Positions 6,341 through 22,743 are shown, numbered from the stretch's first letter. The stretch: 22,743 bases of DNA from Candidatus Acetothermia bacterium (GCA_046543235.1 JBKGZT010000019.1:1-22743), one strand, 5' to 3'. A program made the numbers and translations. Notes: generated by a model from the sequence alone, not told the origin.

Positions 6341-8425
6341 TTATCTCGAGTAAAGGCTGTTTTTTAACACCTTAAAGTCATCCATCGAGGATTGAAGGGT
6401 TGAGATACGCTCTGACAGTGTAGAGTTTAACTCCGAGAACTCGCTGTTGAAGTAACCTCGCATCTGCTCCAGTGTCCACTTCCTGCTTACCTTTTCTTCG
6501 TCGAGTTCGTCCAGGTCGTTTTTGAGGTCGTTTACTCTTTTGTCTAGCCGGGAATTAAGGTCGTCGACTCGTTCATTCAAACTTTCTCGGAGCTCTTTTA
6601 ACGTTTTTACCTTGGAATCCAGCCGTTCCGTTAGGGCGTTAAGATCCTTCTTCATTTCCGCCCGTTTCTCGTTAAGCGTCGAAAGCTTCGACGAGAGTTC
6701 TGTCTGTTCGGATTCCATCGCGGAAATTTTTCCGGAGACCTCTTCGTCCTTTTCGGAGAGTTCGGTTGTTTTCTGTTGAAATTCTTCCATCATTGTTTCG
6801 ACTTCTTTCCTCAGGTCGGTTTCCCTTTCCTTTACCCGGTTTATCCTTTCCCTCAGATCCTGGTTTGTCTGGACTAACTGTTTGGCGATGGAACCCGTTT
6901 CTTCATCGAGATTCTCCACCTTCCTTTCCAGCCCCTGGATAGAAGATGAAGTCTTATCCATGAAGTCGTTTAGTTCCATCCGGAGGTCGGAATCCACCTC
7001 AAAGAGGTGTGCGAGGTTCTCCCGGAGCCGCTCGTCGAGGTCCTCTATCTTTTCCTCGAAGCTTGTATCCTTATCCTTTAGTTGGGAAATTTCGTCCTCT
7101 ATCCGCGAGCTAAATTGGTTGTAATTGGTTCTCAGGGTCGAAAACTCGGATTCCAGGTTGTCGAGTCTTTGGCTCAACTTCTCGTTTCTGGATTTTAGCT
7201 GATGGAGTTCTTCGTTTACCTTATCTCCCAGGTTACCGAGGGAGGACTTGAGCTCCTGGTTCTTCTTACTTAGGTCCTCCACTTTACTCCGTAGCTCCTG
7301 ATCGCTGCCCTCCAATGCGGCCTCCAGTTGATCTATTTTTCGGCTTAGCTGATCCGAAACTAGACTTATTTCTTCTTTCAGAGAGGATAGCTCCGAATTG
7401 AGTCGTGCCTTCTCGGATTTAAGGTTCGATATCTCCTCTTCTAGATCGGCGTCTTTCGAAGAAAGTTCGGACCCGACCTCTTCCAGTTTTCCCTCCAGAG
7501 ATGCCGACGTATTCTTCTGTTCTTCTTCAAACGTTTCCAGTCGGTTTAAAAGTACATCAACCCTGTTTTCGACGTTTTTTATATCGTTTTCAAGGGCTTT
7601 ATCCTTTTCGTCAGAAGAGCTTTTAACCCGATTGAGCTGATTCTCGAATTCCGAGGAGACCTTATCCAGGTCCGTTGCGACTCCTTCAACCTCCTTCAAG
7701 AGGTCACTTTGATTGCCTGCCAGGTCCTTGTATTTTTCCCGTAAATCTGCTATTTCAGCATCCGTGTCTTCCCCGGCCTGATTCAGGTTGTCGACGGAGT
7801 CCCGAAGCTTGGCCAAACTCTCCTGCTGGCCCCGGGTTTCCGCTTTGAGGTCCTCGGTTCTGCTTTCGACCGAGTTTAACTTCTCCGTAAGATTCTTCTC
7901 CACGGAGACGATCTCTTCCTGGTTTTCTTTTTCTTCTGTCTTCAGGGAGGCCAGTTCTCCCTTGAGATCTTCCCTGACCCCCTTTAGTTCGCCGGCCAGG
8001 TCTTTTGTCGTTTCCTCCAGCCCCGAATACCTCTCGGATAGGCTGGCCAGCTTTTCTCCGGCGTCGCTTAAGTCGATATCGACGCTCTCGAACCCAGCCT
8101 CCAGTTCGCCCGTCTTGGATTCAAGTTCCTCTATTTGTGACCTTAAACCGGACTCGACTTCGTCGATCCTGGACTGAAAGTTTTTCACCGTGGTGTCGAA
8201 ATCTTCGATTTCCTCCCGTAGGCCGGTCTGACCTTCCTGTAAGCTGGATATAACATCTGCCTGAGAGCTTGTACTATCCTCCAGGTCGGACAGTTCCTGC
8301 TGGATGGAAGAAGTATCATTCCCCAGGGAACCGAGCCTGTTGTTATAGCTTATCCCCACGAAAAGCAGACCGCCTATCAAAACCAGAATGGAGCCATAAA
8401 CGAGGATTTTGCTCAATCTTGTCAT
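6341..8425 (-). CDS. Long acidic coiled-coil protein with a single N-terminal membrane anchor/signal; function unknown
   Basis: Hydrophobic residues 7-26, then about 660 aa of E/K/L/S/D-rich heptad-type sequence with no Pro or Cys; GGGGTGG RBS. Confidence 0.85.
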   Translation of the reverse strand: MTRLSKILVYGSILVLIGGLLFVGISYNNRLGSLGNDTSSIQQELSDLEDSTSSQADVISSLQEGQTGLREEIEDFDTTVKNFQSRIDEVESGLRSQIEELESKTGELEAGFESVDIDLSDAGEKLASLSERYSGLEETTKDLAGELKGVREDLKGELASLKTEEKENQEEIVSVEKNLTEKLNSVESRTEDLKAETRGQQESLAKLRDSVDNLNQAGEDTDAEIADLREKYKDLAGNQSDLLKEVEGVATDLDKVSSEFENQLNRVKSSSDEKDKALENDIKNVENRVDVLLNRLETFEEEQKNTSASLEGKLEEVGSELSSKDADLEEEISNLKSEKARLNSELSSLKEEISLVSDQLSRKIDQLEAALEGSDQELRSKVEDLSKKNQELKSSLGNLGDKVNEELHQLKSRNEKLSQRLDNLESEFSTLRTNYNQFSSRIEDEISQLKDKDTSFEEKIEDLDERLRENLAHLFEVDSDLRMELNDFMDKTSSSIQGLERKVENLDEETGSIAKQLVQTNQDLRERINRVKERETDLRKEVETMMEEFQQKTTELSEKDEEVSGKISAMESEQTELSSKLSTLNEKRAEMKKDLNALTERLDSKVKTLKELRESLNERVDDLNSRLDKRVNDLKNDLDELDEEKVSRKWTLEQMRGYFNSEFSELNSTLSERISTLQSSMDDFKVLKNSLYSR

Positions 8426-9728: not shown

Positions 9729-9770
9729 ACCTTTTGGTGCAGGTAGTTGAAGTTAAGAAAGGGAGGGGAG

Positions 9771-10643
9771 ATGTCGATACTAATCGATAGTTCTTCTAAT
9801 GTACTCGTCCAAGGGGTTACGGGCGGGGAAGGGAAGTTTCATAGTCGCCGTATGCAGGAGTACGGGACGAACATCGTGGCTGGTGTAACGCCGGGCAAAG
9901 GAGGGGAAGAGGTAAGCGGAGTTCCTGTCTACGATAGCGTAAGAGGGGCTAGATCGGACGTCCGGATCGATGCTTCAGTGATCTTTGTACCGGCGAAGTT
10001 TGCAAAAGATGCCATCCTGGAAGCTGTCAGTAACGAGATCGGGCTCGTGGTTTGTATAACTGAAAACATACCGGTTCATGACATGGTTGAAGTTTACAAT
10101 TACGTAAATAACTGTACCGGATCGACCTTAATAGGGCCCAACTGTCCGGGTATTATATCGCCCGGAAAAAGCAAGGTCGGCATAATGCCCGGAGATGTGT
10201 TTAGTCCGGGAAGGGTTGGTATTGTTTCCAGGAGCGGGACACTTACTTACGAAATTTCCTCCGAGCTAACCGATGCGGGTCTGGGTCAATCCACCGTCGT
10301 CGGGATTGGGGGGGATCAAATCGTTGGAACCGGTTTCGTCGAGGTCGTATCAAGGCTTGACGAAGACCCGGAAACCGATTTAATCGTCATGGTTGGAGAA
10401 ATAGGTGGTTCGGCGGAAGAAAGGGTGGCCGAGTTCATCTCGGGAAAGGTTTCCACCCCTTCAGTGGCCTACATAGCTGGGTTTAGTGCTCCCAGGGGCA
10501 AAAGAATGGGGCACGCGGGGGCGATAGTTTCGGGTGAAGAGGGAACCGCCGAGTCAAAGGCAAAAGCTCTGAGGGATGCTGGTATACCGGTTGGGCGGAG
10601 CCCTGCTGAACTGGCGGATCTTGCCAGGAAGGCTCTTAGCTGA
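9771..10643 (+). CDS. sucD: Succinyl-CoA synthetase alpha subunit
   Basis: 'VQGVTG', 'GVTPGKGG', 'IGPNCPG', 'SRSGTLTYE', phospho-His motif 'MGHAGA'; GGGAGG RBS before ATG 9771. Confidence 0.95.
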   Translation: MSILIDSSSNVLVQGVTGGEGKFHSRRMQEYGTNIVAGVTPGKGGEEVSGVPVYDSVRGARSDVRIDASVIFVPAKFAKDAILEAVSNEIGLVVCITENIPVHDMVEVYNYVNNCTGSTLIGPNCPGIISPGKSKVGIMPGDVFSPGRVGIVSRSGTLTYEISSELTDAGLGQSTVVGIGGDQIVGTGFVEVVSRLDEDPETDLIVMVGEIGGSAEERVAEFISGKVSTPSVAYIAGFSAPRGKRMGHAGAIVSGEEGTAESKAKALRDAGIPVGRSPAELADLARKALS

Positions 10644-10678: not shown

Positions 10679-11827
10679 TTAGGTGCTTCCGGCCCCGATA
10701 ATTGTCTCGGCACCGTCTTCAAGCGAGTCGGCGGCCGAGATCCCGTTTTCCTTTAGTATTTTCCTGCCCTCTTCCTCGTTAGTGCCGGTTAGCCTAACGA
10801 CCAGGGGTAGTAGATCACCTTTCGTGTTTTCAAGGGCTTTTACTATCCCACTGGCAATCTCATCACAGCGCGTTATTCCTCCAAATATATTGACAAAAAC
10901 CCCCTTTAGACCTTCCTTTTCGGTGACTAACTCGTAAGCCTTTTTCATTAGTTCGGCATCGGCTCCGCCACCTACGTCGAGGAAGTTCGCGGGTTTACCG
11001 CCCTTTTGGCTCAGCACGTCGAGGGTCGACATAACCAGACCGGCACCGTTACCTATGACCCCGATACTCCCGTCCAATTCGACGTATTGAAGGCCAATAG
11101 CTTCCGCTTTCCTTTCCAGGATGGTCTTGCTACCCCCCTCGATCCCCTGGGGAAGTATTTCTTCAATTTTCTCGGAAGCTCTCGTGTCATCGTCTATTTT
11201 GACTTTTGAATCTAGCGCGAGCAGCTTCCTTTCTTTTGTCAGGGCGACCGGGTTGATTTCGACTAGGGTGGCTCCGTATTCCTCGTAAACCGAAAAGAGC
11301 TTCTCCAGGAGCCGGTAAAAGTCCCCAAAGTGTTCATCGTTCACTTCGGTCCGGTAAAGCAGCTCTCTTATGGTATAAGGTTGGAGACCAATAAGGGGGT
11401 CAGGCGAGGCTTCGTAAATCGCATCGGGACTGTTAGTGGCTACTTCTTCGATGTCCACACCGCCCTGTGGCGAAAAGATTATTACCGGACCCTTCCTCTC
11501 TCTGTCCAGCAGGATGGAAACGTAGTATTCTTTTTCTATATCAACCTTTTCAACTAGCAGGACCTTGGAGACCTTCTCACCTTTTAGCTCGGAACCGAGG
11601 AGTTCTTCCGCGGCTTTCCGAGCTTCCTTGGGGGTCTCCACGATCTTAACGCCACCGGCTTTTCCTCTTCCTCCCACCGGCACCTGGGCTTTTACTACGC
11701 CTTTGCCCTCCAGTTTATACCTGGCTATCCTGTAAGCTTCCTCGCCCGTTTCGGCGACCTCACCAAGGGGTAGAGGTACTCCGGTTTTCATCAATAGCTT
11801 CCTGCCCTGGTATTCCAGTAACCTCAT
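10679..11827 (-). CDS. sucC: Succinyl-CoA synthetase beta subunit
   Basis: 'MRLLEYQG', 'VKAQVPVGGRGKAGG', 'EINP', 'GNGAGL', 'NFLDVGG', 'NIFGGI'; AAGGAGGT RBS. Confidence 0.95.
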   Translation of the reverse strand: MRLLEYQGRKLLMKTGVPLPLGEVAETGEEAYRIARYKLEGKGVVKAQVPVGGRGKAGGVKIVETPKEARKAAEELLGSELKGEKVSKVLLVEKVDIEKEYYVSILLDRERKGPVIIFSPQGGVDIEEVATNSPDAIYEASPDPLIGLQPYTIRELLYRTEVNDEHFGDFYRLLEKLFSVYEEYGATLVEINPVALTKERKLLALDSKVKIDDDTRASEKIEEILPQGIEGGSKTILERKAEAIGLQYVELDGSIGVIGNGAGLVMSTLDVLSQKGGKPANFLDVGGGADAELMKKAYELVTEKEGLKGVFVNIFGGITRCDEIASGIVKALENTKGDLLPLVVRLTGTNEEEGRKILKENGISAADSLEDGAETIIGAGST

Positions 11828-11878: not shown

Positions 11879-13363
11879 TTAGAATAATAAACCGATTAAC
11901 GGTTGCAGTACAAAGTAGCCGAATGCGGTAATAACGACCAGAGCTATTATGTTCAGACCGAAACCGTTTTTGACCATCTGTGGGATCGTCACGTGGCCGG
12001 TACCGAATACGATCGCGTTTGGTGGCGTCGCCACGGGCAGCATGAAGGCACCGGATATCCCGAGTATCGCCGGTACGGCAAGCACGAGGAACTCTATCTC
12101 CATGGCTGATGCGAGGGGGACGAGAACCGGCAACATCATCGCCGCGGTTCCGGTGTTGGAAGTCAGCTGGGTCAAAGCGACCATCAGACCGATTACCAGC
12201 AGCAAAAACAGGAACAGGGGAAGATGGGTAAACCAGTCCAGCCCCCCGGCTAGCCAGGTAGCCAGCCCGCTTTCCTCGATCCCCTTTGCCAGTGCCAGGC
12301 CACCGCCGAAAAGAATAAGCGTGCCCCAGGGGATCTTGACCGCCCATTCCCAGTCCAGGGCGAACTCTCCCTGATCCAGGTTGATTGGTATCATAAACAG
12401 AAGTACTGCCATGGCGATACCTATTGTGGCATCTCCGACCATTGGAAGAAGCGGAGAGATGAGAAAACTCCTAATAATCCAGAGGAAGGCCGTCAGGGCG
12501 AAAACGACTAGCACTCGTCTCTCGCCCTTTCCCATAGGACCCAGTTTCTGCAACCTTTCTTCTATCAAATCATCCCCACCCGGGATGCTCTCCATATGGA
12601 TTGGACTGCTCACACTGGTGAGGTACCACCAGGAAACTGGAAGCAAAATAATCACAACGGGAATTCCGACGATCATCCAGTTCAGGAAGGAAATGTTTTG
12701 CCCCAGGTTGTTTTCCATGAAGGCCGCAAGGAGGGCATTGGGCGGGGTCCCAATTATCGTCCCCATACCTCCGATGTTACATGCGTAAGCAATGCCCAGC
12801 ATGAGAGCCACGCCGAAGTTGGTTTCGAGCTTTCCTTTTGATTCTTCTTTCTCCTTGTTTGCGTTTTTGACGAAGGACACCACGGCCAGGCCCACCGTCG
12901 CCATCATCATTGCCGTCGCGGTATTGGAAATCCACATGGAAAGAAAGCCGCTGGCGACCATGAAGCCCAGAATTAACCTCCTGGGTCCGGTTCCGATCCC
13001 TCGGATAATATAAAGGGCAATCCGCCGGTGGAGCCCCCACTTCTGCATGGCAACTGCAATCAAAAATCCTGCCATGAACAGGAAGACCAGCCTGTGCCCG
13101 TACTGAGATGCCACGTCCCCGGAGTCCATGATGCCGAAGGCGGGAAACAGGACTAACGGCAACAGCGACACGGCCGCAATTGGCAGCGCTTCGGAAACCC
13201 ACCACGTCGCCATCAATACCGCGATTGCCAGGGTCCTTTTGGCTTCCGGGCTGTGAATTTCTAGGGGAAGAAGCAATATTAAGGTGAAGAAAGCGAGGCC
13301 AAGGACTAATCCCATCCGCTGCCTAAATCCAAAGTTTTTTGAAGATTCCTCGTTGTTTAACAA
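11879..13363 (-). CDS. DASS/SLC13 sodium:dicarboxylate symporter (SdcS/VcINDY-like)
   Basis: Two SNT motifs ('SMWISNTAT', 'LTSNTGT'), 'IGTPPN', 'PVATPPNA', many TM segments. Confidence 0.93.
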   Translation of the reverse strand: MLNNEESSKNFGFRQRMGLVLGLAFFTLILLLPLEIHSPEAKRTLAIAVLMATWWVSEALPIAAVSLLPLVLFPAFGIMDSGDVASQYGHRLVFLFMAGFLIAVAMQKWGLHRRIALYIIRGIGTGPRRLILGFMVASGFLSMWISNTATAMMMATVGLAVVSFVKNANKEKEESKGKLETNFGVALMLGIAYACNIGGMGTIIGTPPNALLAAFMENNLGQNISFLNWMIVGIPVVIILLPVSWWYLTSVSSPIHMESIPGGDDLIEERLQKLGPMGKGERRVLVVFALTAFLWIIRSFLISPLLPMVGDATIGIAMAVLLFMIPINLDQGEFALDWEWAVKIPWGTLILFGGGLALAKGIEESGLATWLAGGLDWFTHLPLFLFLLLVIGLMVALTQLTSNTGTAAMMLPVLVPLASAMEIEFLVLAVPAILGISGAFMLPVATPPNAIVFGTGHVTIPQMVKNGFGLNIIALVVITAFGYFVLQPLIGLLF

Positions 13364-13527: not shown

Positions 13528-14118
13528 CTAAAGTAATTCGAGTTCCTTGGATAGATTTCGATCGACTTGCTCCGAGATCTCCCGGTGGATGGAATCACCG
13601 TTCGAGTCCATCGTCACGAGCAGAGGGCCGAACTCGACGACCTCCAACAACCAGACCGCCTCGGGAACCCCCAGTTCCTCCAGATAAAAGACGTCGACCA
13701 CTTTTTCGACGGAACCTGCCATGAGGGAGCCCGCGCCTCCGGTGAATTGGGCGTAGACTCCACCGTGTTTTTCTAACGCTTTTGAGGTTTCCTCGCCCAT
13801 CCCACCTTTACCGATGAATATTTTCGTTCCGAACTCCTCCATAAAATCGGGTTCGAATATCTCCATCCTAATACTTGTCGTAGGGCCGGCCGAGATTACC
13901 TTCCAGACTTCATTATCTTTCTTCATTACCGGGCCGCAGTGGAAGCAGGGGGAAGCCGAAAGGTCGAAAGGTGGTTCCTCACCCTCTTCTTTCAGGTCAA
14001 GGAGCTTCTCGTGGGCCGCGTCGCGAGCGGTAAATATTTTACCAGTTATCTTGAACGGATCGTTTACTCTCAACCCGTTTACTTCTTCCGGGTCGAGAGG
14101 GGTCTGCAGCACTTTCAT
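13528..14118 (-). CDS. Fe-S hydro-lyase (class I fumarate hydratase / tartrate dehydratase) beta subunit
   Basis: 'TARDAAH', 'GPTTSIRME', 'IGKGGM', 'LGVPEAVW', 'FGPLLVTMDS'. Confidence 0.92.
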   Translation of the reverse strand: MKVLQTPLDPEEVNGLRVNDPFKITGKIFTARDAAHEKLLDLKEEGEEPPFDLSASPCFHCGPVMKKDNEVWKVISAGPTTSIRMEIFEPDFMEEFGTKIFIGKGGMGEETSKALEKHGGVYAQFTGGAGSLMAGSVEKVVDVFYLEELGVPEAVWLLEVVEFGPLLVTMDSNGDSIHREISEQVDRNLSKELELL

Positions 14119-14120
14119 CC

Positions 14121-14990
14121 TTACACCTCCTCGATTTCTCCTTCCGGGGTAATCCGGAACGAGTTACGTCTGTTGGCCCAGCACTGTGGCGTTATACCAA
14201 CGGGATAGGAAGCGGGGTGTCTGTAGTCGTATTCTATTTTTACGTCCAGAACCGTAGTTTTTCCTCCGACGCCCATCGGTCCGACGCCCAAGTTGTTTGC
14301 TCTTTCCTTTAGCTCCTCTTCCAGGTTAGCTATTTCACTTTCCTCGTTCCGCTCGCCTACAGGCCTCAGTAAGGATTTCTTGGCAAGGCTCATTGCAATG
14401 GATGCGGATCCTCCCAGACCCACTCCTACGATCGTAGGCGGACAGGGTTTTCCCTCCATTGAAGCTATCCTCTCCAAAATGAGTTCTTTTACTCCTTTTA
14501 TACCTTTCCCCGGTGTCATCATCGTCAGCTGGCTCATGTTCGTGCTCCCTCCACCCTTTGGCAGGTAAGTCACCTTCAGGTCCGAGCCGTCGACGATATT
14601 CCAGTTTATCCAGGGAATTGAACGCCCTGTATTGTCTCCAGGGTTTTTCCCCGAAATTGGATGAACGGTATTTGGTCGGATCGGAACTTCTTCCGTTGCA
14701 AGCCTGATGCCCTCTCTTACCGCTTTTTTGACCTCGGCCAGCTGATCGATTGCAGGATAATCGGACCCCAGTTGAACGTAAAAAGTGGGCGTCCCCGTAT
14801 CCTGGCATATAGGTATCTCCTCTTTCTGGCCGATCTCCACGGCTTCCAATATTGCATCCAGCTGGACGCGGGCGCCATCTTCTTCTCTTTCTCTTGCCTC
14901 TTTTAGCGCTGTCAGCGTCGGCTCCGGTAGCGTGGTAACCGACTTTTTAATCGGACCGACCAAATCCCGAGCCAGTTTCTCCGGAATCAT
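14121..14990 (-). CDS. Fe-S hydro-lyase (class I fumarate hydratase / tartrate dehydratase) alpha subunit
   Basis: 'PICQDTG', 'KGGGS', 'CPP', 'RHPAS', 'CWANRR'; the KGGGS motif favours fumarase. Confidence 0.92.
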   Translation of the reverse strand: MIPEKLARDLVGPIKKSVTTLPEPTLTALKEAREREEDGARVQLDAILEAVEIGQKEEIPICQDTGTPTFYVQLGSDYPAIDQLAEVKKAVREGIRLATEEVPIRPNTVHPISGKNPGDNTGRSIPWINWNIVDGSDLKVTYLPKGGGSTNMSQLTMMTPGKGIKGVKELILERIASMEGKPCPPTIVGVGLGGSASIAMSLAKKSLLRPVGERNEESEIANLEEELKERANNLGVGPMGVGGKTTVLDVKIEYDYRHPASYPVGITPQCWANRRNSFRITPEGEIEEV

Positions 14991-15105: not shown

Positions 15106-16461
15106 TCATTCCTCAGGTGGTTCCTCGATAAGGCCTTCCTCCATGGCCTTCTGGGTCCACTCTCTCGCCTTTTCGATTCTCGACCGGGCTGACTCGGCAA
15201 GTTCTTTCTCCGTCATTTCGTTTCGTGCAATCCCCTGTTCAATTGCCTTTTTTCCGACGGCGACGGCCTGGTTTATGAATACCTCCCACTCGTCCATATT
15301 TGGAACGACGTATTCTTCACTCAGTCCTTTCTCTTCAGCAGTATCCGCTATGGCGTGCGCGGCCGCGATCGCCATCTCGTCGGTGATGGTCTCTGCGTTT
15401 ACGTCCAGGGTTCCCCGGAATATTCCGGGAAAACCTATGGAGTTGTTGATCTGATTGGGGAAGTCGGAGCGTCCGGTGCCGACGATCCTTGCCCCCGCTT
15501 CCTTCGCCTTCCAGGGCCAGATCTCGGGAATCGGGTTGGCTACGACAAACACTACCGCGTCGTCGTTCATCTTTTCGATCCATTCCTTCTTGATCGTGTC
15601 CGGGCCGGGTGCAGAGGCGGCAACCAGCACGTCGGTATCGCGGATGGTCTCCTCCAGACCGCCGGTTCTGCCTTCTCCGTTCGTCTTTACGGCCAGGTCC
15701 CACTTGTAGGGGTTATGGTCTTTGTTCTCTTCCAGGTCCTCGCGTCCCTGGTGCAAAATACCTGTACTGTCCGCAATTACCACGTTTTCCGGAGGTACTC
15801 CTGCGTTAAACATAACCCGGGTCAGCGCGACGTTTGCAGCCCCGGCGCCAATTATCGAGTACTTTGCCTCTTCCAGCTCCTTACCCACGATCTTGAGCGA
15901 GTTTATGATACCGGCCAGCTCGATCGAGGCTGTACCCTGCTGGTCGTCGTGCCATACGGGAATACTCATTTCCTCCCTCAATCGATCTAGAACCTCGAAG
16001 CACTTTGGCTTCGCGATGTCCTCCAGGTTTATCCCCCCAAAACTGGGTTGCAGGATCTTGACCGTTTTGATGATTTCTTCGGGATCTTCGGTATCCAACG
16101 TAATCGGAAAGGCGTCTATACCGCCCAGATATTTGAACAGCAGGGCCTTGCCTTCCATCACGGGGAGCCCGGCCTCCGGACCGATGTTCCCGAGACCGAG
16201 AACTCTGGAACCGTCCGACACGACGGCTACGGTGTTGGCTTTGTTGGTATGCTCGAATACCTTTTCCGGTTCCTCCTCTATCTCTCTGCAGGGTTCGGCA
16301 ACTCCGGGAGTGTACCAGATTCCGAAATCATCGAAACTCCTTATCGCACATTTGGGGTTGGTCTGGATCTTCCCTTTATAGAAAGGGTGAAATTTGAGCG
16401 CGTCCTTCCCCGGTTTTTCCGCCTTTTTTAGCAGTTCCTCTTCGCTGATTTCCTCCTCCAT
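15106..16461 (-). CDS. NAD(P)-dependent malic enzyme (short type, no PTA domain)
   Basis: 'YTPGVA', 'VLGLGNIG', 'PVMEGKA', 'INLEDI', 'HDDQQGT', 'GAGAA', 'TGRSDFPNQINN'. Confidence 0.95.
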   Translation of the reverse strand: MEEEISEEELLKKAEKPGKDALKFHPFYKGKIQTNPKCAIRSFDDFGIWYTPGVAEPCREIEEEPEKVFEHTNKANTVAVVSDGSRVLGLGNIGPEAGLPVMEGKALLFKYLGGIDAFPITLDTEDPEEIIKTVKILQPSFGGINLEDIAKPKCFEVLDRLREEMSIPVWHDDQQGTASIELAGIINSLKIVGKELEEAKYSIIGAGAANVALTRVMFNAGVPPENVVIADSTGILHQGREDLEENKDHNPYKWDLAVKTNGEGRTGGLEETIRDTDVLVAASAPGPDTIKKEWIEKMNDDAVVFVVANPIPEIWPWKAKEAGARIVGTGRSDFPNQINNSIGFPGIFRGTLDVNAETITDEMAIAAAHAIADTAEEKGLSEEYVVPNMDEWEVFINQAVAVGKKAIEQGIARNEMTEKELAESARSRIEKAREWTQKAMEEGLIEEPPEE

Positions 16462-16495: not shown

Positions 16496-17359
16496 TCAGT
16501 CCAGGTAACTATCCGCGACGTCGCAGTAAGTGGGGCGGTCGGTGTCTACGAACTTTCCGACGATTATCTCCGATTCCGGGTCCCGTTCTATCTCGGCCTC
16601 CGCCGGATCCGAATCGTGCTTGATTACCGCCCTTTCCTGATAACTTTTCAGCTCGTCAATACCTTCACCGAGCTGGTTCTTGCGTCCGTATCCGGTGGGG
16701 CAGGGAGACAGGATCTCTATGAAGGAGAACCCGTTCTTGGAAAGGGCTTCCACCATGCTCTTTTGTATTCTCCGTGCGTGGACGGTTGTCCAGCGGGCGA
16801 CGTAAACAGCTCCCGATGAAGCAGCCAGGTCCGGGAGGTTAAAGGGCTTTTCGTAGTTACCGTATGGCGAGGTGGTGGCATTTGCTCCCTGGGGCGTCGT
16901 CGGTCCGAACTGTCCTCCCGTCATACCGAAGTTGTAGTTATTTACACAGATTACGTTCATATTGAGGTTTCGCCGGGCAGCGTGGATAAAGTGGTTCCCC
17001 CCGATGGCAAAAAGATCCCCGTCACCGCTAAAGACGGTCACGTTCATCTCTGGGTTGGCAAGTTTTAACCCTGTTGCAAAGGGGATGGCTCTTCCATGGG
17101 TGGTGTGGTACGAATCAGTTTCGAAATATCCTGCTCCACGACCGGCGCAACCTATACCTGACACTATACCTATGTCATCTATTGGAAGCTCTAACTCATC
17201 GAATGCATTCGTTAGACCCGTGACTGCCGACCCGAGACCACAGCCGGAACACCAGATGTGCGGCAATCTTTCTTCTCTCAGGTACTTCGTGGCCGGATGG
17301 TTTGCCTCAGTGATCTCCGGCTCGGTAAATTCCTTTCTCTCTTGCATCTCCGTCGTCAT
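16496..17359 (-). CDS. korB: 2-oxoacid (probably 2-oxoglutarate):ferredoxin oxidoreductase beta subunit
   Basis: 'WCSGCG', 'SGIGC', 'HTTHGRA', TPP motif 'GDGD...NN', 'GMTGGQ', 'SPCPT'. ATG 17359 overlaps the korA stop (ATGA) and has a GGAGG RBS. Confidence 0.92.
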   Translation of the reverse strand: MTTEMQERKEFTEPEITEANHPATKYLREERLPHIWCSGCGLGSAVTGLTNAFDELELPIDDIGIVSGIGCAGRGAGYFETDSYHTTHGRAIPFATGLKLANPEMNVTVFSGDGDLFAIGGNHFIHAARRNLNMNVICVNNYNFGMTGGQFGPTTPQGANATTSPYGNYEKPFNLPDLAASSGAVYVARWTTVHARRIQKSMVEALSKNGFSFIEILSPCPTGYGRKNQLGEGIDELKSYQERAVIKHDSDPAEAEIERDPESEIIVGKFVDTDRPTYCDVADSYLD

Positions 17360-18510
17360 ATCAAAGCCTCCAGAGCTTCGAGTATCCGTTCTGGTTCGTG
17401 CAGACCTCCGCCAGGGTGGGGAACTAACTTCACGTCGGCATTCCCTTTGCTGGCGCGTTCGACTTCCCGGACTATCTGCCCCAGGTTGATTTCGGGGACG
17501 ACTATACCTTTGACCTGTTTGCTGAGTTCCCTTATCTCTTCTTCCGGGAACGGCCAAACCGTAACGAGCCTGATTATACCGGCTTTTATTCCTTTTTCGC
17601 GAGCCCGCCTGTAGGCTCCCATTGCGGTTCTGTAAGCCATTCCGTAGGAAACTATTAGAACTTCTGCGTCCTCCACTCCTTGTTTTTTGATTTCTACTAT
17701 GTCGTCCTTGTTTTCCTCTACTTTATCGACCAACCTGCCGACCTTTTCTCCCTGGGTTTCCACGTCCAGTTGCGGATACCCTTTCTGGTTGTGGGTCAGA
17801 CCGGTAACGTGGACGCGGTATCCCTCGCCCGCGGAAGCCATTTCCGGGACGAGATCCTCCTTTGGCTCGTAAGGCAAAAAGTCGTCGGGATCCGCTTCCG
17901 GCTTCCGCCTGGGGTAGATATCTACCCTTTCCTCGTCAATTACCACTCGCTCGCGCATATGACCGATCTTTTCGTCCGCCATGACGAATACGGGCATCAT
18001 ATACTGCTCTGCTTTGTTAAAAGCCTTTACCGTGTAGTCGAACATCTCCTGTGGAGACGTCGGAGCATACGCTATTACGCCGTAGTCGCCGTGTGAACCC
18101 CATTTGGCCTGCATCATATCTCCCTGACCAACGGCCGTGGGTAGTCCGGTGCTGGGCGAGCCCCTCTGAATATTGGCGATTACGCAGGGGGTTTCTGTCA
18201 TCATGCCCAGCCCGATGTTCTCCATCATCAGCGAGAACCCTGGCCCTGACGTGGCGGTCATCGCGCGCGAGCCGCCCCAGGAGCCGCCGAGTACGGCGGC
18301 GATAGAGCTTAGCTCGTCCTCCATCTGGATGAATCTGCCCCCGACTTCCGGCATTCTCTGGGACATCCTTTCGGCTATTTCGGACTGCGGGGTAATCGGG
18401 TAACCGGCGAAAAATCGGCAGCCGGCAGCAAGAGCCCCCTCGGCACAAGCCTCGTCACCGTTCATAAAGTACTTACCGGTCATTATCGCGACTTCGTTTT
18501 TTTCACTCAT
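17356..18510 (-). CDS. korA: 2-oxoacid (probably 2-oxoglutarate):ferredoxin oxidoreductase alpha subunit
   Basis: 'GYPITP', 'QMEDE', 'TATSGPGFSLM', 'QRGSPSTGLPT', 'WGSHGD', 'EINLGQ'. Confidence 0.93.
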   Translation of the reverse strand: MSEKNEVAIMTGKYFMNGDEACAEGALAAGCRFFAGYPITPQSEIAERMSQRMPEVGGRFIQMEDELSSIAAVLGGSWGGSRAMTATSGPGFSLMMENIGLGMMTETPCVIANIQRGSPSTGLPTAVGQGDMMQAKWGSHGDYGVIAYAPTSPQEMFDYTVKAFNKAEQYMMPVFVMADEKIGHMRERVVIDEERVDIYPRRKPEADPDDFLPYEPKEDLVPEMASAGEGYRVHVTGLTHNQKGYPQLDVETQGEKVGRLVDKVEENKDDIVEIKKQGVEDAEVLIVSYGMAYRTAMGAYRRAREKGIKAGIIRLVTVWPFPEEEIRELSKQVKGIVVPEINLGQIVREVERASKGNADVKLVPHPGGGLHEPERILEALEALI

Positions 18511-18772
18511 TCTTATCGCCTTCTTCGGACCAAATGGCGAAATCAGGACAGATCATCCCGCAGAAATTGCAATCAACGCACTCCCGCAGGTCGACAGGTA
18601 CTGGCGGGTGGTAACCCTTCTCGTTGAATTCCTCGGATTCTTCCAGGACGTCCTGAGGGCAGAACTCGATGCAGTAGCCACATCCTTTGCAGTAGTCTTC
18701 CTTGATATAAAGTTCGCCCTCGTCGGTTTCCCACTTCTTCGTCTTTGCTTCGTCTTTCGTGCTGGTTGTCAT
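18503..18772 (-). CDS. korD: 2x[4Fe-4S] ferredoxin-like delta subunit of the oxidoreductase
   Basis: 'CKGCGYCIEFCP' and 'CVDCNFCGMICPDFAI'; overlaps the korA start. Start is ATG 18772 or GTG 18778. Confidence 0.88.
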   Translation of the reverse strand: MTTSTKDEAKTKKWETDEGELYIKEDYCKGCGYCIEFCPQDVLEESEEFNEKGYHPPVPVDLRECVDCNFCGMICPDFAIWSEEGDKNE

Positions 18773-18796
18773 ATTCACCCTTTGTGTCTTTTAGTT

Positions 18797-20476
18797 TTAG
18801 AGGATATCAATTGAGCGTGATAACGCCTCTTCGCCTCTGTATTCGGGAATCAGCATAGGAGATTTACGGTCTTCGTCGACACCTGCTTCTTTCAGTTCCC
18901 TTGCGTATTTCTCCGCGTGGTTTAGGGTGATCTCTCCCCAGTCCGTTTCCCGGGCTCGCCTTGCGGCGGAAATCCCGGCACGCTTTCCGAATACGTTGTA
19001 ATCCAGCAGGGAATTTCCCATCAATCTGTTTTTCCCGTGCACTCCACCTTCTACTTCCCCTCCGGCAAAGAGGCCCTCGACGGCCGTCTTACCTTCTTCG
19101 TCGATTTCGATTCCCCCGTTCTGGTAATGCAGCGTCGGAAATACCAGAAGCGGGTCCTCGGTCGGATCGATACCAAATCTAGTGTAAAGCCTGTAGATAT
19201 AAGCAAGGTTCTCTTCGAAAGTTCCGTCTCCGTGTATCATGTCGATCATCGGTGTATCCAGCCAGACCCCCTTCATCCCGGTGGGAGTCTCTACTCCCAT
19301 CTCTCGGCCGTAGCATTCCCGTATTAGTGCCCCCGCTTCCACGTCCCTGGGCTCCAGGTTGAATACGAATGCTTCCCCTTCTCGATTTACCGGGATGGCG
19401 CCCGAACCGCGGACCTTCTCGGTTACGAGCAGGCCGACTATCTGTTCGGGAAAAGCGGCTCCGGTCGGGTGGTACTGAACCGAGTCCATGTCGAGCAGGT
19501 TTGCACCGGCCCGGTAGGCCATAACAAGACCGTCAGCGGTAGCCCCGTAGTGGTTGGTCGTCGGGAAGTCCTGTATGTGGAGTCTGCCGAACCCCCCCGT
19601 CGCCATAACCACCGACTTGGCCCGGACTACGTAGTACTGTTCGGTCTCCATGTTATAAAGCAGTGCCCCGGTTACGGACCCCTCCGAATCGGTCAGTAGC
19701 TCGACCGCCGGTGAAAACTCCTCAACGGGTACGTCAAGGTTTCTGGCTCTGTCCCGTATATTACGCATGAGCTCCATTCCCGTGTAGTCCTTGGCCGAAT
19801 GGAGACGCTTGTGCGATGTCCCCCCTCCGTGCAACGTCTTCATCGTTCCGTCCTCGCTCTTGTCGTACATAACCCCCAGTTGTTCGTGCCACTTCAGGAT
19901 CCCGGGCGCGTCCTTCGCCAGCGCCCGGGCAAGATCTGGTTTGTTTGCGAAATGCCCTCCGCCGATAATGTCGAGGAAGTGGGCCCCGGGGCTGTCTTCT
20001 TCCTTGTCCGCGGCCTGAATCCCGCCCTGGGCCATCATCGAATTGGCGTCACCGTGCCTGAGTTTGGTTGCGATCAATATATCGGAGGGGTCGATTCCCT
20101 CTCTGATTGCCCAGAGGGACGCGACGGTACCGGCGCCACCGCCACCAATTACGAGGACGTCTACTTCGTAGTCAACCTTCGTTAGATCAACCTCTTGAGG
20201 GTCAACGGCGGGGTAAGCTTCCAGCAGGTCGGCCAGTTCCAGGGGCATCTGGTCGCCCCGGTTCGGTCCTGCCTCCAGGCTACGCATGCCCTCTTCTCTG
20301 TAGTCCGGATGAAATTGGTTTAAGACATCTTCCCTCTCTGCCGGATCCATCCTGTCGATTTCCTTTCCAAGCCTGTCATCCCTGGTTTCTTCTACTTTTC
20401 GTATCGACTCCCGCATCGATTCTGGATAGGGGTCTTCGCCGGCCTTGCCGTTATTCTTCGATTTCCCTGTTCTCAT
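18797..20476 (-). CDS. Fumarate reductase/succinate dehydrogenase-family flavoprotein (TfrA-like, soluble)
   Basis: 'VIGGGGAG', 'AQGG', 'ATGG', 'QYHPTG', 'TEKVRG', 'PRD', 'HYQNGG', 'HGKNRLMGNSL'. Start moved to ATG 20476 (GGAGGAG RBS), overlapping the upstream gene end. Confidence 0.9.
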   Translation of the reverse strand: MRTGKSKNNGKAGEDPYPESMRESIRKVEETRDDRLGKEIDRMDPAEREDVLNQFHPDYREEGMRSLEAGPNRGDQMPLELADLLEAYPAVDPQEVDLTKVDYEVDVLVIGGGGAGTVASLWAIREGIDPSDILIATKLRHGDANSMMAQGGIQAADKEEDSPGAHFLDIIGGGHFANKPDLARALAKDAPGILKWHEQLGVMYDKSEDGTMKTLHGGGTSHKRLHSAKDYTGMELMRNIRDRARNLDVPVEEFSPAVELLTDSEGSVTGALLYNMETEQYYVVRAKSVVMATGGFGRLHIQDFPTTNHYGATADGLVMAYRAGANLLDMDSVQYHPTGAAFPEQIVGLLVTEKVRGSGAIPVNREGEAFVFNLEPRDVEAGALIRECYGREMGVETPTGMKGVWLDTPMIDMIHGDGTFEENLAYIYRLYTRFGIDPTEDPLLVFPTLHYQNGGIEIDEEGKTAVEGLFAGGEVEGGVHGKNRLMGNSLLDYNVFGKRAGISAARRARETDWGEITLNHAEKYARELKEAGVDEDRKSPMLIPEYRGEEALSRSIDIL

Positions 20477-21140
20477 ATCTCTCCTCCAGTTCTTCTTTTG
20501 GAAGGTTGACCAGTTCTTCGAGCTCCTCGTCGAATTTTCCATTCTGGATTTCTTCTACTCGTTCTTCCAGGTGATTTGAGTCCGGAGCCTGGTACCTGCC
20601 ATGAATTCTTCGTGCGAGCTGTGCGACGTGATGATGCGGAATTTCTGCCGGGCAGCGAGCTGCACAGAGTCCGCACTGGATGCAGTCGAAGGACAGTTCC
20701 GCGACGGATTCTATGTCTCCCCGGATCCCGTCGTTGACAAAGTCCATGACTTCCAGGTCCTGGGGACAGGTCTTGGTGCAGGTATTGCAGGAAACGCACC
20801 GGGCCAGTTCCGGGTAGAGATCCAGTAAAGGATTACCGGAAGGTTCTATTTGTTCTATATCGTATTCCTCCCTGCCCGCCGGCGTAAACGGTAGCTGCGT
20901 AAGGTACATTCCGTCCTGGACCGTTGTCTGACAGGCGAGATCAGTGTGGAGTTTGTAATCACCCTCTATCCGGTATATCGTGGCGCAGGCACCGCAAAAA
21001 CCCCCCCGGCAGCCTACCCCCCGTACGTACTGATAACCGCTGTACTCCATAGCCTTCATTATGGTGAGTCCTTTCGGTACTTCGTACTTCTTACCCATTA
21101 TAAATATCTCGACTGTTTCGGCTTCCGGCTCTTCGGGCAC
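20451..21140 (-). CDS. Fumarate reductase iron-sulfur subunit (SdhB/TfrB N-terminal-like)
   Basis: [2Fe-2S] motif 'GCRGGFCGAC...LACQ' plus 'CVSCNTCTKTCP' and 'CIQCGLCAARCP'; GTG start with GAGGTGA RBS. Confidence 0.88.
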   Translation of the reverse strand: MPEEPEAETVEIFIMGKKYEVPKGLTIMKAMEYSGYQYVRGVGCRGGFCGACATIYRIEGDYKLHTDLACQTTVQDGMYLTQLPFTPAGREEYDIEQIEPSGNPLLDLYPELARCVSCNTCTKTCPQDLEVMDFVNDGIRGDIESVAELSFDCIQCGLCAARCPAEIPHHHVAQLARRIHGRYQAPDSNHLEERVEEIQNGKFDEELEELVNLPKEELEERYENREIEE

Positions 21141-21144
21141 GGTA

Positions 21145-22032
21145 TCACCTCACGTTACCCGCTGTGCCCTCTAAGTCTAGGGCTTTCGTGGGTTCTATTG
21201 CGTGATCTTCGAATCTACAGAGATCGGAATGGCCAAAAGCGACGGCCATTAATTGTGTAAAGTAAAGGGCCGGTACTGGGTGATGGCCGGGGGCTATTTC
21301 GGCGTACTCCGCCTGCCTGGTATCCAGGTTAAACTGGCATAGGGGGCAGGCGGTAATCAGGACGTCCGCTCCCGCTTTCTCGGCTCCTCCGGTAATCGTT
21401 CCTGCCTTGTCCAGAACTACCTCCTTTTCGTCTACCGTGTTATACGAGCCACAGCATTCCGAATCGTAAGGGTATTCAACCGGGTTCCCGCCCAGGCTGC
21501 GAACGAGGTCGTCTAATATCGTCGGATTATGGGGATCGTCCAGACCGACTTCTTTCGGCCGGGTTAGCATGCATCCGTAGTAAGGCGCCACGTTCATGTT
21601 TTCCAGGGGATAAATGACCTTATCCCGAATCGCCTCCCAGCCCAGTTCGTCACGGAGAAGCTCCAGATAGTGGCGGACTTCGACTTCTCCCGAGTAATTC
21701 TCTTCCTGATCCATGAACTCGTTAATCTTGTTTAGTTTTTCCTCGTCTTCCCTTACGAGCGAATTCGACCGCTTCAACGTGTTGTCGCACATGGCGCAGA
21801 GCGTATAAAGCCGTTCAGCCCCTTCATCCCGCGCTCGTATAAGGTTCCTTATCGGCCCCAGCTGTTTCATCAGGTTGTCGTCTGCCAGGGAGTAAACGGT
21901 ACCACAGCAGTTCCACGGGGAAAGCTCTTTCAGATTTATCTCGAGATCTTCCGAAACGGCCATAGCAGAACTCTCGAAACCCTTTGCTGTATCTTTAAGG
22001 CTGCAGCCGGGGTAGTAAAAAAGGTCTTTCAT
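21145..22032 (-). CDS. hdrB: Heterodisulfide reductase subunit B-like (two CCG domains)
   Basis: 'YYPGC...WNCCG...CAMC' and 'YYGC...CCG...ACPLC', 'YFTQL'. Start is ATG 22032 or TTG 22041. Confidence 0.92.
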   Translation of the reverse strand: MKDLFYYPGCSLKDTAKGFESSAMAVSEDLEINLKELSPWNCCGTVYSLADDNLMKQLGPIRNLIRARDEGAERLYTLCAMCDNTLKRSNSLVREDEEKLNKINEFMDQEENYSGEVEVRHYLELLRDELGWEAIRDKVIYPLENMNVAPYYGCMLTRPKEVGLDDPHNPTILDDLVRSLGGNPVEYPYDSECCGSYNTVDEKEVVLDKAGTITGGAEKAGADVLITACPLCQFNLDTRQAEYAEIAPGHHPVPALYFTQLMAVAFGHSDLCRFEDHAIEPTKALDLEGTAGNVR

Positions 22033-22037
22033 GGAAA

Positions 22038-22421
22038 TCAACCCGTCTTCTTTCTCAGATTGCTGACTAAAGCTATCTCCGGTAATTCCTTCGTCTCGAT
22101 CTCGTCCAGATCAACCCTGTCCACGTTGAGCCTAAGGCTGATCTCCCTTATTCCTTCCATTATCGCCGGGACGTCGTTACCCTGGGGGCAGTCTACCTCG
22201 CAGCTGAGGCAGGAGGCACAGATCCACGGGGTTTCTGCCTCGAGGACGCCTTCGTTCCCCATCTGAACCTTTCTGATTACCTGGTTGGGTAACAGATCCA
22301 TTTCCTCGGTAAACGGGCAACCTGCAGAACACTTGCCGCACTGGTAACAGGAATAGACGTTTTCCCCGCTCAACTCCTCTACTTCAGCCGTCAATTCCCG
22401 GTTGGAGTTGGTTAAATTCAT
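22038..22421 (-). CDS. hdrC: Heterodisulfide reductase subunit C-like (short, 2x[4Fe-4S])
   Basis: 'CYQCGKCSAGCP', 'MDLLPNQVIR', 'WICASCLSCEVDCP'; directly upstream of hdrB; AAGGAG RBS. Confidence 0.9.
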   Translation of the reverse strand: MNLTNSNRELTAEVEELSGENVYSCYQCGKCSAGCPFTEEMDLLPNQVIRKVQMGNEGVLEAETPWICASCLSCEVDCPQGNDVPAIMEGIREISLRLNVDRVDLDEIETKELPEIALVSNLRKKTG

Positions 22422-22494
22422 AATGTCTCCTTCTCTTTAAGTTTCTTCCAATGTAACTCGTACGTTCGAATTGACTTGGGGTTCTCGTATGGAA

Positions 22495-22661
22495 GACGAG
22501 ATTTTTGGTAACCTTTCAGGAAAATCCTATCGGAGGCCGAGCGGGCATGGTTCCGCTCTTTCTCTGAAAGAGCGGAGAGCGAGGCCGAGATCGGAAGCAG
22601 CGATTTCCTCGCTGGGGAAATCGCCTGCGGTTTTGTCGAAAGGTTACCAAAAAAGCTCGTC
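22495..22661. repeat. Inverted-repeat-bounded palindromic element (MITE-like or structured RNA)
   Basis: Perfect 16-bp IR TTTTTGGTAACCTTTC (22502-22517) / GAAAGGTTACCAAAAA (22638-22653), extendable to GACGAG/CTCGTC; internal hairpins at 22552-22576 and 22597-22628. Confidence 0.7.
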
Positions 22662-22693
22662 ATAGCTTAGCTCCTCTAATATTATCCGTGGAA

Positions 22694-22743
22694 TTACCTC
22701 TCAATTTCCTCAACCAGCTTTCCATCCTCGTCGTAGATACTCA
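22694..22743 (-). CDS. 3' end of an upstream gene, possibly a [NiFe]-hydrogenase large subunit (MvhA-like)
   Basis: Own translation: ...SIYDEDGKLVEEIER-TAA; resembles the cleavable tail after DPCxxCxxH in group 3 hydrogenases and fits the hdr context. Only 15 codons visible. Confidence 0.4.
   Translation of the reverse strand, partial: SIYDEDGKLVEEIER

Follow-up and report, generated by a model that had tools for sequence, protein, structure and literature searches.

Gene organization of the locus

The DNA analyzed here is a stretch of 22,743 nucleotides (nt) from Candidatus Acetothermia bacterium (GCA_046543235.1 JBKGZT010000019.1:1-22743), referred to below as the window; it is the entire contig C85 of a metagenome-assembled genome (MAG) of 1.32 Mb, which comprises 97 contigs and is 87% complete. 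The subject of this work is a core of four minus-strand genes at 18797-22421, encoding an HdrC-like protein, an HdrB-like protein, an iron-sulfur (Fe-S) subunit, and a flavoprotein of the fumarate reductase type. These genes head a minus-strand array that runs from 22421 down to 10679 and continues with korD, korA, korB, and the genes for malic enzyme, fumarase, a DASS transporter, and SucC (Table 1). The initial annotation had described the core genes as abutting or overlapping, and their coordinates bear this out: hdrC shares 4 nt with hdrB, a gap of 4 nt separates hdrB from the Fe-S gene, and the Fe-S and flavoprotein genes overlap by 26 nt. The flavoprotein gene is separated from korD by 18 nt, and korD overlaps korA by 8 nt. 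A GGAG sequence is located 8 nt upstream of the ATG of hdrC.

On the minus strand, the window's final 50 bases encode the protein end '...SIYDEDGKLVEEIER' and a stop codon. The rest of this gene, mvhA, is located on contig C62 (C62:6-1463), and the whole open reading frame (ORF) comprises 485 amino acids (aa). The last 55 bases of the window are identical to C62:1-55, and this 55-mer occurs nowhere else in the genome; 16 contig-end pairs of the assembly share such 55-mers, which are the mark of an assembly-graph overlap. Onward on the same strand, C62 carries mvhA, mvhG, mvhD, hdrA (653 aa), and korG. The mvhA, mvhG, mvhD, and hdrA genes that had been expected beyond position 22743 were found there, through the unique 55-mer and the gene content of C62. 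The join between C85 and C62 is confirmed by the same gene order on single contigs of relatives. In a same-genus genome (G012), one contig carries KorG-HdrA-MvhD-MvhG-MvhA-HdrC-HdrB-FeS-Fp-KorD-KorA-KorB-ME-FumA-FumB (Fp, flavoprotein; ME, malic enzyme); in L019 (88% identity), the order from MvhA to SucD on one contig is identical to that of the window, and in L030, an Acetothermia MAG, the full gene order is present on one contig.

The spacer between mvhA and hdrC is 272 nt long and contains a dispersed repeat resembling a miniature inverted-repeat transposable element (MITE), of which 28 further partial copies occur on other contigs of the genome, many of them at contig ends. In Logan contigs, a depth spike was observed at this repeat, with breaks at 22507-22640, and the repeat was not bridged. 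Two Logan contigs (X2 record 16 and X3 record 24) extend approximately 2033 nt beyond position 22743; both belong to the possible source study of the MAG and are not independent. Two other same-genus contigs (L101, L103) end at hdrC, the same break point as in the window, and the repeat is probably the cause of the break in these contigs and here. An 81-aa ORF at 22418-22663 on the minus strand, abutting hdrC, was considered and is probably not a gene, as it falls within the repeat and matches no family.

The HdrC protein matches Fer4_8 (4e-10) and scores 54-56 bits with HdrC models, under all of their equivalog cut-offs; it is short and contains 8 Cys in two CxxCxxCxxxCP motifs. HdrB matches PF02754 in two stretches (1.7e-17), and the 10 Cys of its two noncubane [4Fe-4S] sites are invariant in 22/22 aligned sequences. 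When the HdrB profile was compared with solved structures, full-length matches were obtained only to 5 distinct HdrB sequences of methanogen Hdr, with E values of 1e-54 to 1e-61. HdrB is the sole CCG protein found in the genome, and the MvhD on C62 (FlpD model, 8.2e-51) is the sole MvhD/FlpD. MvhA (VhuA, 1e-104) retains RICGVCPEAH and DPCLACATH, the two Ni-Fe Cys motifs, and MvhG matches VhuG (1.2e-61). These VhuA, VhuG, and FlpD scores are all below the equivalog cut-offs, and HdrA scores 820 bits with the HdrA2 model (cut-off 1100) over the span 6-650. HypD is present in the genome. MvhA matches at 19 related loci comprise 14 with both motifs and 3 cut by a contig end; the others include 2 without the first pattern and 1 divergent case. 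Judged by its motifs, the hydrogenase of this genome is apparently intact.

The Fe-S subunit and the flavoprotein

The Fe-S subunit consists of an N-terminal [2Fe-2S] domain, an 8-Cys domain for 2 x [4Fe-4S], and an acidic helical tail, and it matches the Fer2_4, Fer2, and Fer4 families. Its 12 Cys are invariant in 28/28 sequences, and both cluster motifs are of the CxxCxxCxxxCP type. By sequence this subunit is SdhB-like in layout only. It scores 30.9 bits with the dhsB model TIGR00384 (cut-off 88), and an hhalign alignment with the genome's own SdhB extends over only 56 columns in the 2Fe-2S part. No SdhB or FrdB appeared among the best 60 of 146 solved-structure matches of the Fe-S profile, where polyferredoxins and similar proteins were found instead. 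With the TfrB model NF004898 (cut-off 385) it scores 39.3 bits, through the 2Fe-2S part alone, and HdrB scores 33.4 bits. Two longer relatives of the Fe-S subunit were found, one fused to an NAD-binding flavoprotein domain and the other to a HycI protease; there was no fusion to a CCG or FAD_binding_2 domain among these two, which is weak evidence. Predictions of a complex between the Fe-S subunit and HdrB (alignments A2 and A3) yielded 0.19, 0.37, and 0.06 against a mark of 0.32, in runs without controls.

In the flavoprotein, FAD_binding_2 (4.6e-68) covers residues 128-512 of the 581-aa ORF. Members of its family are about 549 aa long, share a conserved N-terminal extension of about 100 residues, and are without Succ_DH_flav_C (PF02910). 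Alignment to Escherichia coli FrdA and mycobacterial SdhA shows that HPTG, TEKxR, EPRD, HYQNGG (with the His of HYxxGG), and GKNRL are kept, and the dicarboxylate catalytic residues are invariant in 20/20 family members. The position of the His that binds FAD covalently is occupied by Asn in the flavoprotein and in all 20 aligned members. By analogy with FrdA and SdhA, Asn in place of this His lowers the flavin potential and favors fumarate reduction over succinate oxidation. In a Foldseek search with an AlphaFold2 (AF2) model, SdhA/FrdA folds ranked first, with a TM score of about 0.47.

Curated models all score the flavoprotein below their own cut-offs: 313.3 bits against 718 for TfrA (NF004900, the match stopping at model position 427 of 546), 278 against 567 for Sdh/Frd (TIGR01812), 262.7 against 452.75 for NadB (TIGR00551), and 192 against 1100 for the SdhA model of the MFR type. 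The initial annotation had proposed a split TfrB/TfrA. Its architecture stands; family membership does not, with 313 against 718 bits for TfrA and 39 against 385 for TfrB. The pair of Fe-S subunit and flavoprotein is a distinct, highly conserved family and, by model scores, not an orthologue of TfrAB or SdhAB.

In a phylogenetic tree, 79 family members are split from the canonical SdhA of the genome by a very long, fully supported branch, and TfrA/SdhA-like paralogues of deltaproteobacterial loci are also located across that branch. The window flavoprotein forms a group with two MAGs, one of Bipolaricaulota from Great Salt Lake and one labelled Thermotogae; its nearest named relatives are likewise MAGs of Bipolaricaulota and a single one labelled Thermotogae. 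The sister of that group comprises Thermoplasmata and a Spirochaetaceae MAG. This part of the tree includes L019, L020, L025, L026, L028, and L029; other Bipolaricaulota loci, L030 and L036, are located elsewhere. Transfer of the cluster between domains, perhaps in saline environments, seems to have occurred.

Because the closest flavoprotein clade includes Thermoplasmata, an archaeal origin of the window was considered; it was ruled out by the sigma-70 factors of the genome. Three sigma-70 matches were found, and the control for this search matches bacteria only, so the assignment of the host to bacteria was upheld. An aragorn scan of the genome found no tmRNA. Public runs with matching DNA are hypersaline lake and mat metagenomes (17 DNA runs from 6 studies), at least 88% of the sequence words being present in 4 runs of one study; no RNA run carrying the sequence of the genome was found among the public runs listed. 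The very acidic proteins of this organism are consistent with a hypersaline lake or mat source.

Conservation, neighboring genes, and related systems

A pattern scan found the flavoprotein family in at least 600 species genomes, including Asgard, Thermoplasmata, and Bathyarchaeota among the archaea and Bipolaricaulota, Chloroflexota, WOR-3, Bacillota, and others among the bacteria. Neighborhoods were counted at 80 loci kept from tblastn searches with the proteins of the window. The Fe-S gene adjoins the flavoprotein gene in 74/80 loci; HdrB is located immediately before the Fe-S gene in 40/80, and HdrC before that HdrB in 38/80, in both domains of life. Such a recurrence of the order hdrC-hdrB-FeS-Fp places the four-gene linkage far above chance. 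Some Hdr or Mvh gene was present at 65/80 loci, HdrA or MvhD at 47/80, and MvhA at 19/80; any Kor gene was present at 37/80, and any Kor, fumarase, malic enzyme, or Suc gene at 51/80. The flavoprotein was found in 27/41 genomes, G000 included; among 40 relatives, it was present in 14/14 same-genus and 17/18 same-family genomes. The linkage of hdrBC with the reductase pair, on which the initial annotation depended, is conserved in relatives by both the gene order and these genome counts.

Variants of the locus were also observed. A conserved protein of 362-379 aa occupies the place of hdrC-hdrB, between mvhD and the Fe-S gene, in L037, L059, L073, L074, L093, and L096; its C-terminal part contains the dicluster run CxxCxxCxxxCPxCxCxxC, and its N-terminal half has no Pfam match. 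Flx-type NADH modules occur at 3 loci (L042, L045, L062), and a LUD/CCG pair is located beside the Fe-S/flavoprotein pair in L090. The Flx variants, together with the fusion of an Fe-S relative to an NAD-binding domain, fit a terminal reductase that plugs into HdrA-type modules.

Genes of carbon metabolism make up the rest of the array. The kor operon is split, with korG (C62:4830-5390) before hdrA, korDAB (16496-18778) after the flavoprotein gene, and eight genes between them; the same split occurs in L030, L044, and the same-genus locus L102. The genes sucC and sucD are convergent on opposite strands, unlike the usual sucCD pair, and the same arrangement is found in L019. Further along the window, a 694-aa protein at 6341-8425 on the minus strand is nearly all coiled coil, with weak matches to many coiled-coil families.

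Table 1. Positions of the features of the window that are discussed in the text
Feature	Position	Strand	Details
mvhA-like gene, 3' end	22694-22743	-	2 bases of a Leu codon, last 15 codons, stop
MITE-like dispersed repeat	22502-22653		23-nt terminal inverted repeats, inner 11-nt hairpin
hdrC-like gene	22038-22421	-	127 aa; two [4Fe-4S] motifs
hdrB-like gene	21145-22041	-	298 aa; two CCG domains
Fe-S subunit	20451-21140	-	229 aa; 2Fe-2S and 8-Cys dicluster domain
Flavoprotein	18797-20476	-	559 aa as called in public records; fumarate-reductase type
korD, delta (ferredoxin) subunit of 2-oxoacid:ferredoxin oxidoreductase	18503-18778	-	OGOR_delta 5e-22
korA, alpha subunit	17356-18510	-	PRK08659 563 bits, above 411-bit cut-off
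korB, beta subunit	16496-17557	-	PRK09628 2.7e-74, match from residue 90; true start probably later
Malic enzyme	15106-16461	-	malic and Malic_M families
Class I Fe-S fumarate hydratase, alpha	14121-14990	-	Fumerase 4.5e-90
Class I Fe-S fumarate hydratase, beta	13528-14118	-	Fumerase_C 1.8e-45
DASS-family di/tricarboxylate transporter	11879-13363	-	TIGR00785 301.7 bits, above cut-off
sucC, succinyl-CoA synthetase	10679-11827	-	PRK00696 436 bits, above cut-off
sucD, convergent on sucC	9747-10643	+	CoA_binding and Ligase_CoA families

The absence of a membrane anchor had been a further element of the initial annotation. Pfam scans of 21 window ORFs found no SdhC/D- or FrdC/D-like gene, as stated there, and PF01127 had no match in the genome, PF02300 and PF02313 not being part of that search. 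No anchor is linked to the module; elsewhere, the genome has a canonical SdhAB and a hydrophobic ORF. On contig C75 (C75:21869-24942; L017:5870-8943), a canonical SdhA of 568 aa, with the covalent-FAD His, the C-terminal domain, and 712 bits in TIGR01812 against the cut-off of 567, is followed by SdhB (254 aa) and by a 186-aa hydrophobic ORF with roughly four helices. This ORF has no Pfam or NCBIfam match and may be an undescribed membrane anchor. An operon for an ABC amino-acid transporter is located just upstream of these SdhA and SdhB genes.

The window and C62 together contain the gene set of the proposed Hdr-associated, two-subunit soluble fumarate reductase, with the Fe-S and flavoprotein genes among hdrABC, an Mvh input, and genes of a tricarboxylic acid (TCA) branch. 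The likeness to methanogen MvhAGD-HdrABC (5odc, 8rvu, and others) lies in the six subunit types, the cofactor motifs, and the full-length HdrB match; the differences are that ComA was not found in the genome, HdrC has only 127 aa, the Fe-S and flavoprotein genes follow hdrB, and the proposed acceptor is fumarate. TfrAB of Methanothermobacter is a thiol:fumarate reductase, reportedly the subject of work by Heim and coworkers in 1998, which PMC8542988 cites. The window pair resembles it in being soluble and without an anchor, and in combining a FrdA-type flavoprotein, a 2Fe-2S plus 4Fe-4S chain, and CCG domains, but TfrB fuses the Fe-S chain and the CCG domains in one polypeptide, whereas the window has separate genes. 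Canonical complex II is set apart by the Asn at the covalent-FAD His and by the lack, here, of PF02910, of an SdhB-type Fe-S subunit, and of PF01127. In SdhABE of Type E, or MFR, the CCG subunit SdhE anchors a canonical SdhAB; here, the SdhE model NF042965 (MFR_anch_SdhE) gives 140.4 bits against a cut-off of 500, and the flavoprotein partner is not canonical.

Several published clusters are closer in gene content. For Ca. Celaenobacter (Cloacimonadota), the relevant part of Williams et al. 2021 describes a cluster of 'TFR', 2-oxoglutarate:ferredoxin oxidoreductase (OGOR), fumarase, succinyl-CoA synthetase, Mvh, and Hdr, interpreted as an H2-driven supply of reductive TCA steps (PMC8542988). 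Group 3c [NiFe] hydrogenase, Hdr, fumarate reductase, OGOR, fumarase, and succinyl-CoA synthetase are common to that cluster and the window array; Celaenobacter belongs to another phylum, its cluster is set in a full reductive TCA cycle with ATP-citrate lyase, and a CoM-S-S-CoB-type heterodisulfide was assumed for it (PMC8542988). The likening of its 'TFR' to the window pair is by gene content and not by sequence comparison, and the family described here has a Cloacimonadota locus (L078). In tubeworm symbionts and Thioflavicoccus mobilis, the account of Rubin-Blum et al. 2019 gives a cluster frdB-frdA-hdrC-hdrB-korDABC-hdrA-flxDCBA, with 'tfrAB'; the authors proposed that it works either by a thiol loop or as a novel complex whose bifurcated electrons go straight to OGOR and fumarate reductase (PMC6315080). 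The interleaving of frdB, frdA, hdrC, hdrB, kor, and hdrA is shared with the window array, but the input there is NADH via FlxABCD and here H2 via MvhAGD (PMC6315080).

A third case is the 'succinate operon' of Pseudoclostridium thermosuccinogenes, a cultivated organism in which the operon is expressed; as described, it comprises fumarase, Flx-Hdr, and a two-gene 'novel fumarate reductase' (PMC7282089, which cites a preprint of Koendjbiharie and van Kranenburg 2019). It resembles the window array in having a two-subunit soluble fumarate reductase beside HdrABC and a proposed coupling of succinate formation to ferredoxin reduction; it differs in being NADH-driven and, as described, without kor genes, and the likeness is by description only (PMC7282089). 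In the relevant parts of four other papers (PMC12542636, PMC12590816, PMC9723716, PMC11287216), Mvh-Hdr and fumarate reductase are listed apart and are not linked. The idea that connects Mvh-Hdr, fumarate reductase, and OGOR, with its electron logic, is already in print as a genomic inference (PMC8542988, PMC6315080, PMC7282089).

Proposed reaction and alternatives

On balance, the array probably encodes a soluble H2:fumarate, ferredoxin oxidoreductase, in which HdrA bifurcates electrons and fumarate is the high-potential acceptor. From the gene set we infer that fumarate is the substrate and that the reaction runs toward its reduction, that electrons are bifurcated, that the Fe-S/flavoprotein pair associates with HdrBC, and that the wiring is direct, through Fe-S clusters and not through a thiol shuttle. 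H2 would be oxidized at MvhA, and the electron pair would travel via MvhG and MvhD and be bifurcated at the FAD of HdrA. The low-potential electron would go to ferredoxin; the high-potential electron would go to HdrC, through the two noncubane clusters of HdrB, and on to the [4Fe-4S], [4Fe-4S], and [2Fe-2S] clusters of the Fe-S subunit. From there the non-covalent FAD of the flavoprotein would be reduced, and fumarate would be converted to succinate.

The potential of H2 is -414 mV, and that of ferredoxin is near -500 mV. Fumarate is a better electron sink than the methanogen heterodisulfide. With fumarate/succinate at +33 mV, the value given in PMC5861303, the bifurcation would be exergonic. 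One reduced ferredoxin would be gained per succinate formed, which is the supply required by Kor for the carboxylation of succinyl-CoA to 2-oxoglutarate. That the kor genes flank the module on both sides is in line with ferredoxin passing to Kor. Surplus reduced ferredoxin could feed Rnf, and two RnfD-like genes were found in the genome. The role of the system may be biosynthetic, with 2-oxoglutarate as the product, or fermentative, with malate or fumarate as the electron sink, succinate leaving through the DASS transporter, and ferredoxin passing to Rnf.

Direct wiring is favored over a thiol loop because the genome yielded only a single CCG protein and neither a thiol-carrier gene nor a CoM gene. 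Tentatively, and with somewhat more doubt than the reaction itself, HdrB may be no disulfide reductase but a plain relay from HdrC to the Fe-S subunit, in a thiol-free, eight-subunit bifurcating machine physically joined to the split-gene Kor. For every fumarate reduced, one ferredoxin would go directly to Kor, for carboxylation of the succinyl-CoA derived from that fumarate.

A thiol:fumarate loop, in which Mvh-HdrABC would reduce a heterodisulfide and the Fe-S/flavoprotein pair, with or without HdrB, would reoxidize the thiols to reduce fumarate, appears unlikely. TfrAB in Methanothermobacter uses CoM-SH and CoB-SH for such a loop, and the HdrB of the window keeps the 10 Cys of the heterodisulfide-binding noncubane clusters of methanogen Hdr. 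The option is also named for the sister clusters in the accounts cited above (PMC6315080, PMC8542988). However, a loop needs two thiol/disulfide sites, yet a single CCG protein was found, and the Fe-S protein has no CCG domain and reaches only 39 bits with TfrB. The genome had no match to ComA (PF02679), in a search that did not extend to CoB synthesis genes, and no DsrC above the cut-off, although a carrier may be missed at this level of completeness; family scans of the window and C62 proteins found no small thiol-carrier gene in the array. Comparably improbable is the proposal that two co-regulated enzymes are encoded, with Mvh-HdrABC serving another acceptor and the pair forming a stand-alone soluble fumarate reductase that draws on ferredoxin or NAD(P)H. 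Loci with the pair and no Hdr or Mvh gene in reach (15/80) agree with this, as do the other donors adjoining the pair at some loci (the Flx-type modules, the LUD/CCG pair, and the Fe-S protein of about 370 aa) and the MITE-bearing spacer that divides the array in the window. The 4-nt overlap and gap that couple hdrC, hdrB, and the Fe-S gene, the overlap of the Fe-S and flavoprotein genes, and the position of HdrB directly before the Fe-S gene in 40/80 loci across both domains argue for one enzyme. Moreover, no gene for another candidate acceptor adjoins the single HdrABC of the genome, and many of the 15 bare loci are on short contigs or were checked within 10 kb only.

The reverse direction, in which succinate and reduced ferredoxin would yield H2 by confurcation as succinate is oxidized syntrophically or fermentatively, is very unlikely, even though flavin-based bifurcating complexes are reversible in principle and Kor and succinyl-CoA synthetase can also run oxidatively. 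The Asn at the covalent-FAD His in 20/20 members disfavors succinate oxidation, as far as is generally known; the potentials of succinate (+33 mV) and ferredoxin, when averaged, exceed that of H2 by far unless H2 is extremely low; and for oxidation a canonical SdhA with the His is present elsewhere in the genome. A discussion of high-temperature succinate oxidation to H2, for another Hdr-linked complex, is contained in PMC9723716. There is equally little chance that the flavoprotein is an L-aspartate oxidase, or another FAD_binding_2 enzyme with an Fe-S partner, and no fumarate reductase at all. NadB models come near the Sdh/Frd models in score (262.7 against 278-313 bits, all below cut-offs), and the conserved catalytic residues are common to NadB. 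An Fe-S partner is, however, present in 74/80 loci, whereas NadB is understood to have none, and the neighbors are fumarase, malic enzyme, succinyl-CoA synthetase, and Kor. A grouping with NadB, which the initial annotation had treated as damaging to its proposal, was not found by score, the flavoprotein being below the NadB cut-off; NadA (PF02445) had no match in the genome.

Several observations weigh against the H2:fumarate, ferredoxin oxidoreductase proposed here. HdrB keeps the full cluster motifs of a disulfide reductase, as a thiol-using enzyme would; with this site intact and the genome 87% complete, a thiol loop retains its share of probability, and the absences from the genome are provisional in general. 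The bare loci (15/80, several of them short), together with 6 loci where hdrCB is replaced by the Fe-S protein of about 370 aa, imply that HdrBC is not an obligatory partner of the pair. The substrate of the flavoprotein is deduced from conserved residues that NadB shares, and its AF2 model is of moderate confidence (pLDDT 69.9, pTM 0.76). With a canonical SdhAB present, the window pair is not the sole candidate for the fumarate/succinate enzyme of the genome, and SdhAB could be that enzyme. The join of C85 and C62 consists of a k-mer overlap and synteny in relatives, no single contig of the genome itself spanning it. The MITE-bearing 272-nt spacer leaves co-transcription of the two halves of the array unproven, and no promoters or terminators at 18400-22743 scored above shuffled controls. 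In the literature searched, no enzyme assay, structure, or expression data were found for any member of the family.

Mvh-Hdr is common in non-methanogens without CoM and CoB, in which its acceptor is usually left open or mislabelled 'heterodisulfide'. The gene array described here names a concrete high-potential acceptor, fumarate. The value of the window itself is modest: it adds one more clean example, with a hydrogenase that is apparently intact. If the proposed reaction is true, however, many metagenome-based metabolic maps would have to stop taking 'fumarate reductase' to indicate respiration and Mvh-Hdr to indicate a methanogen-like disulfide. If, in addition, HdrB is a relay to the Fe-S subunit, the question of which compound is reduced by 'Hdr' would be answered for many non-methanogens in both domains.

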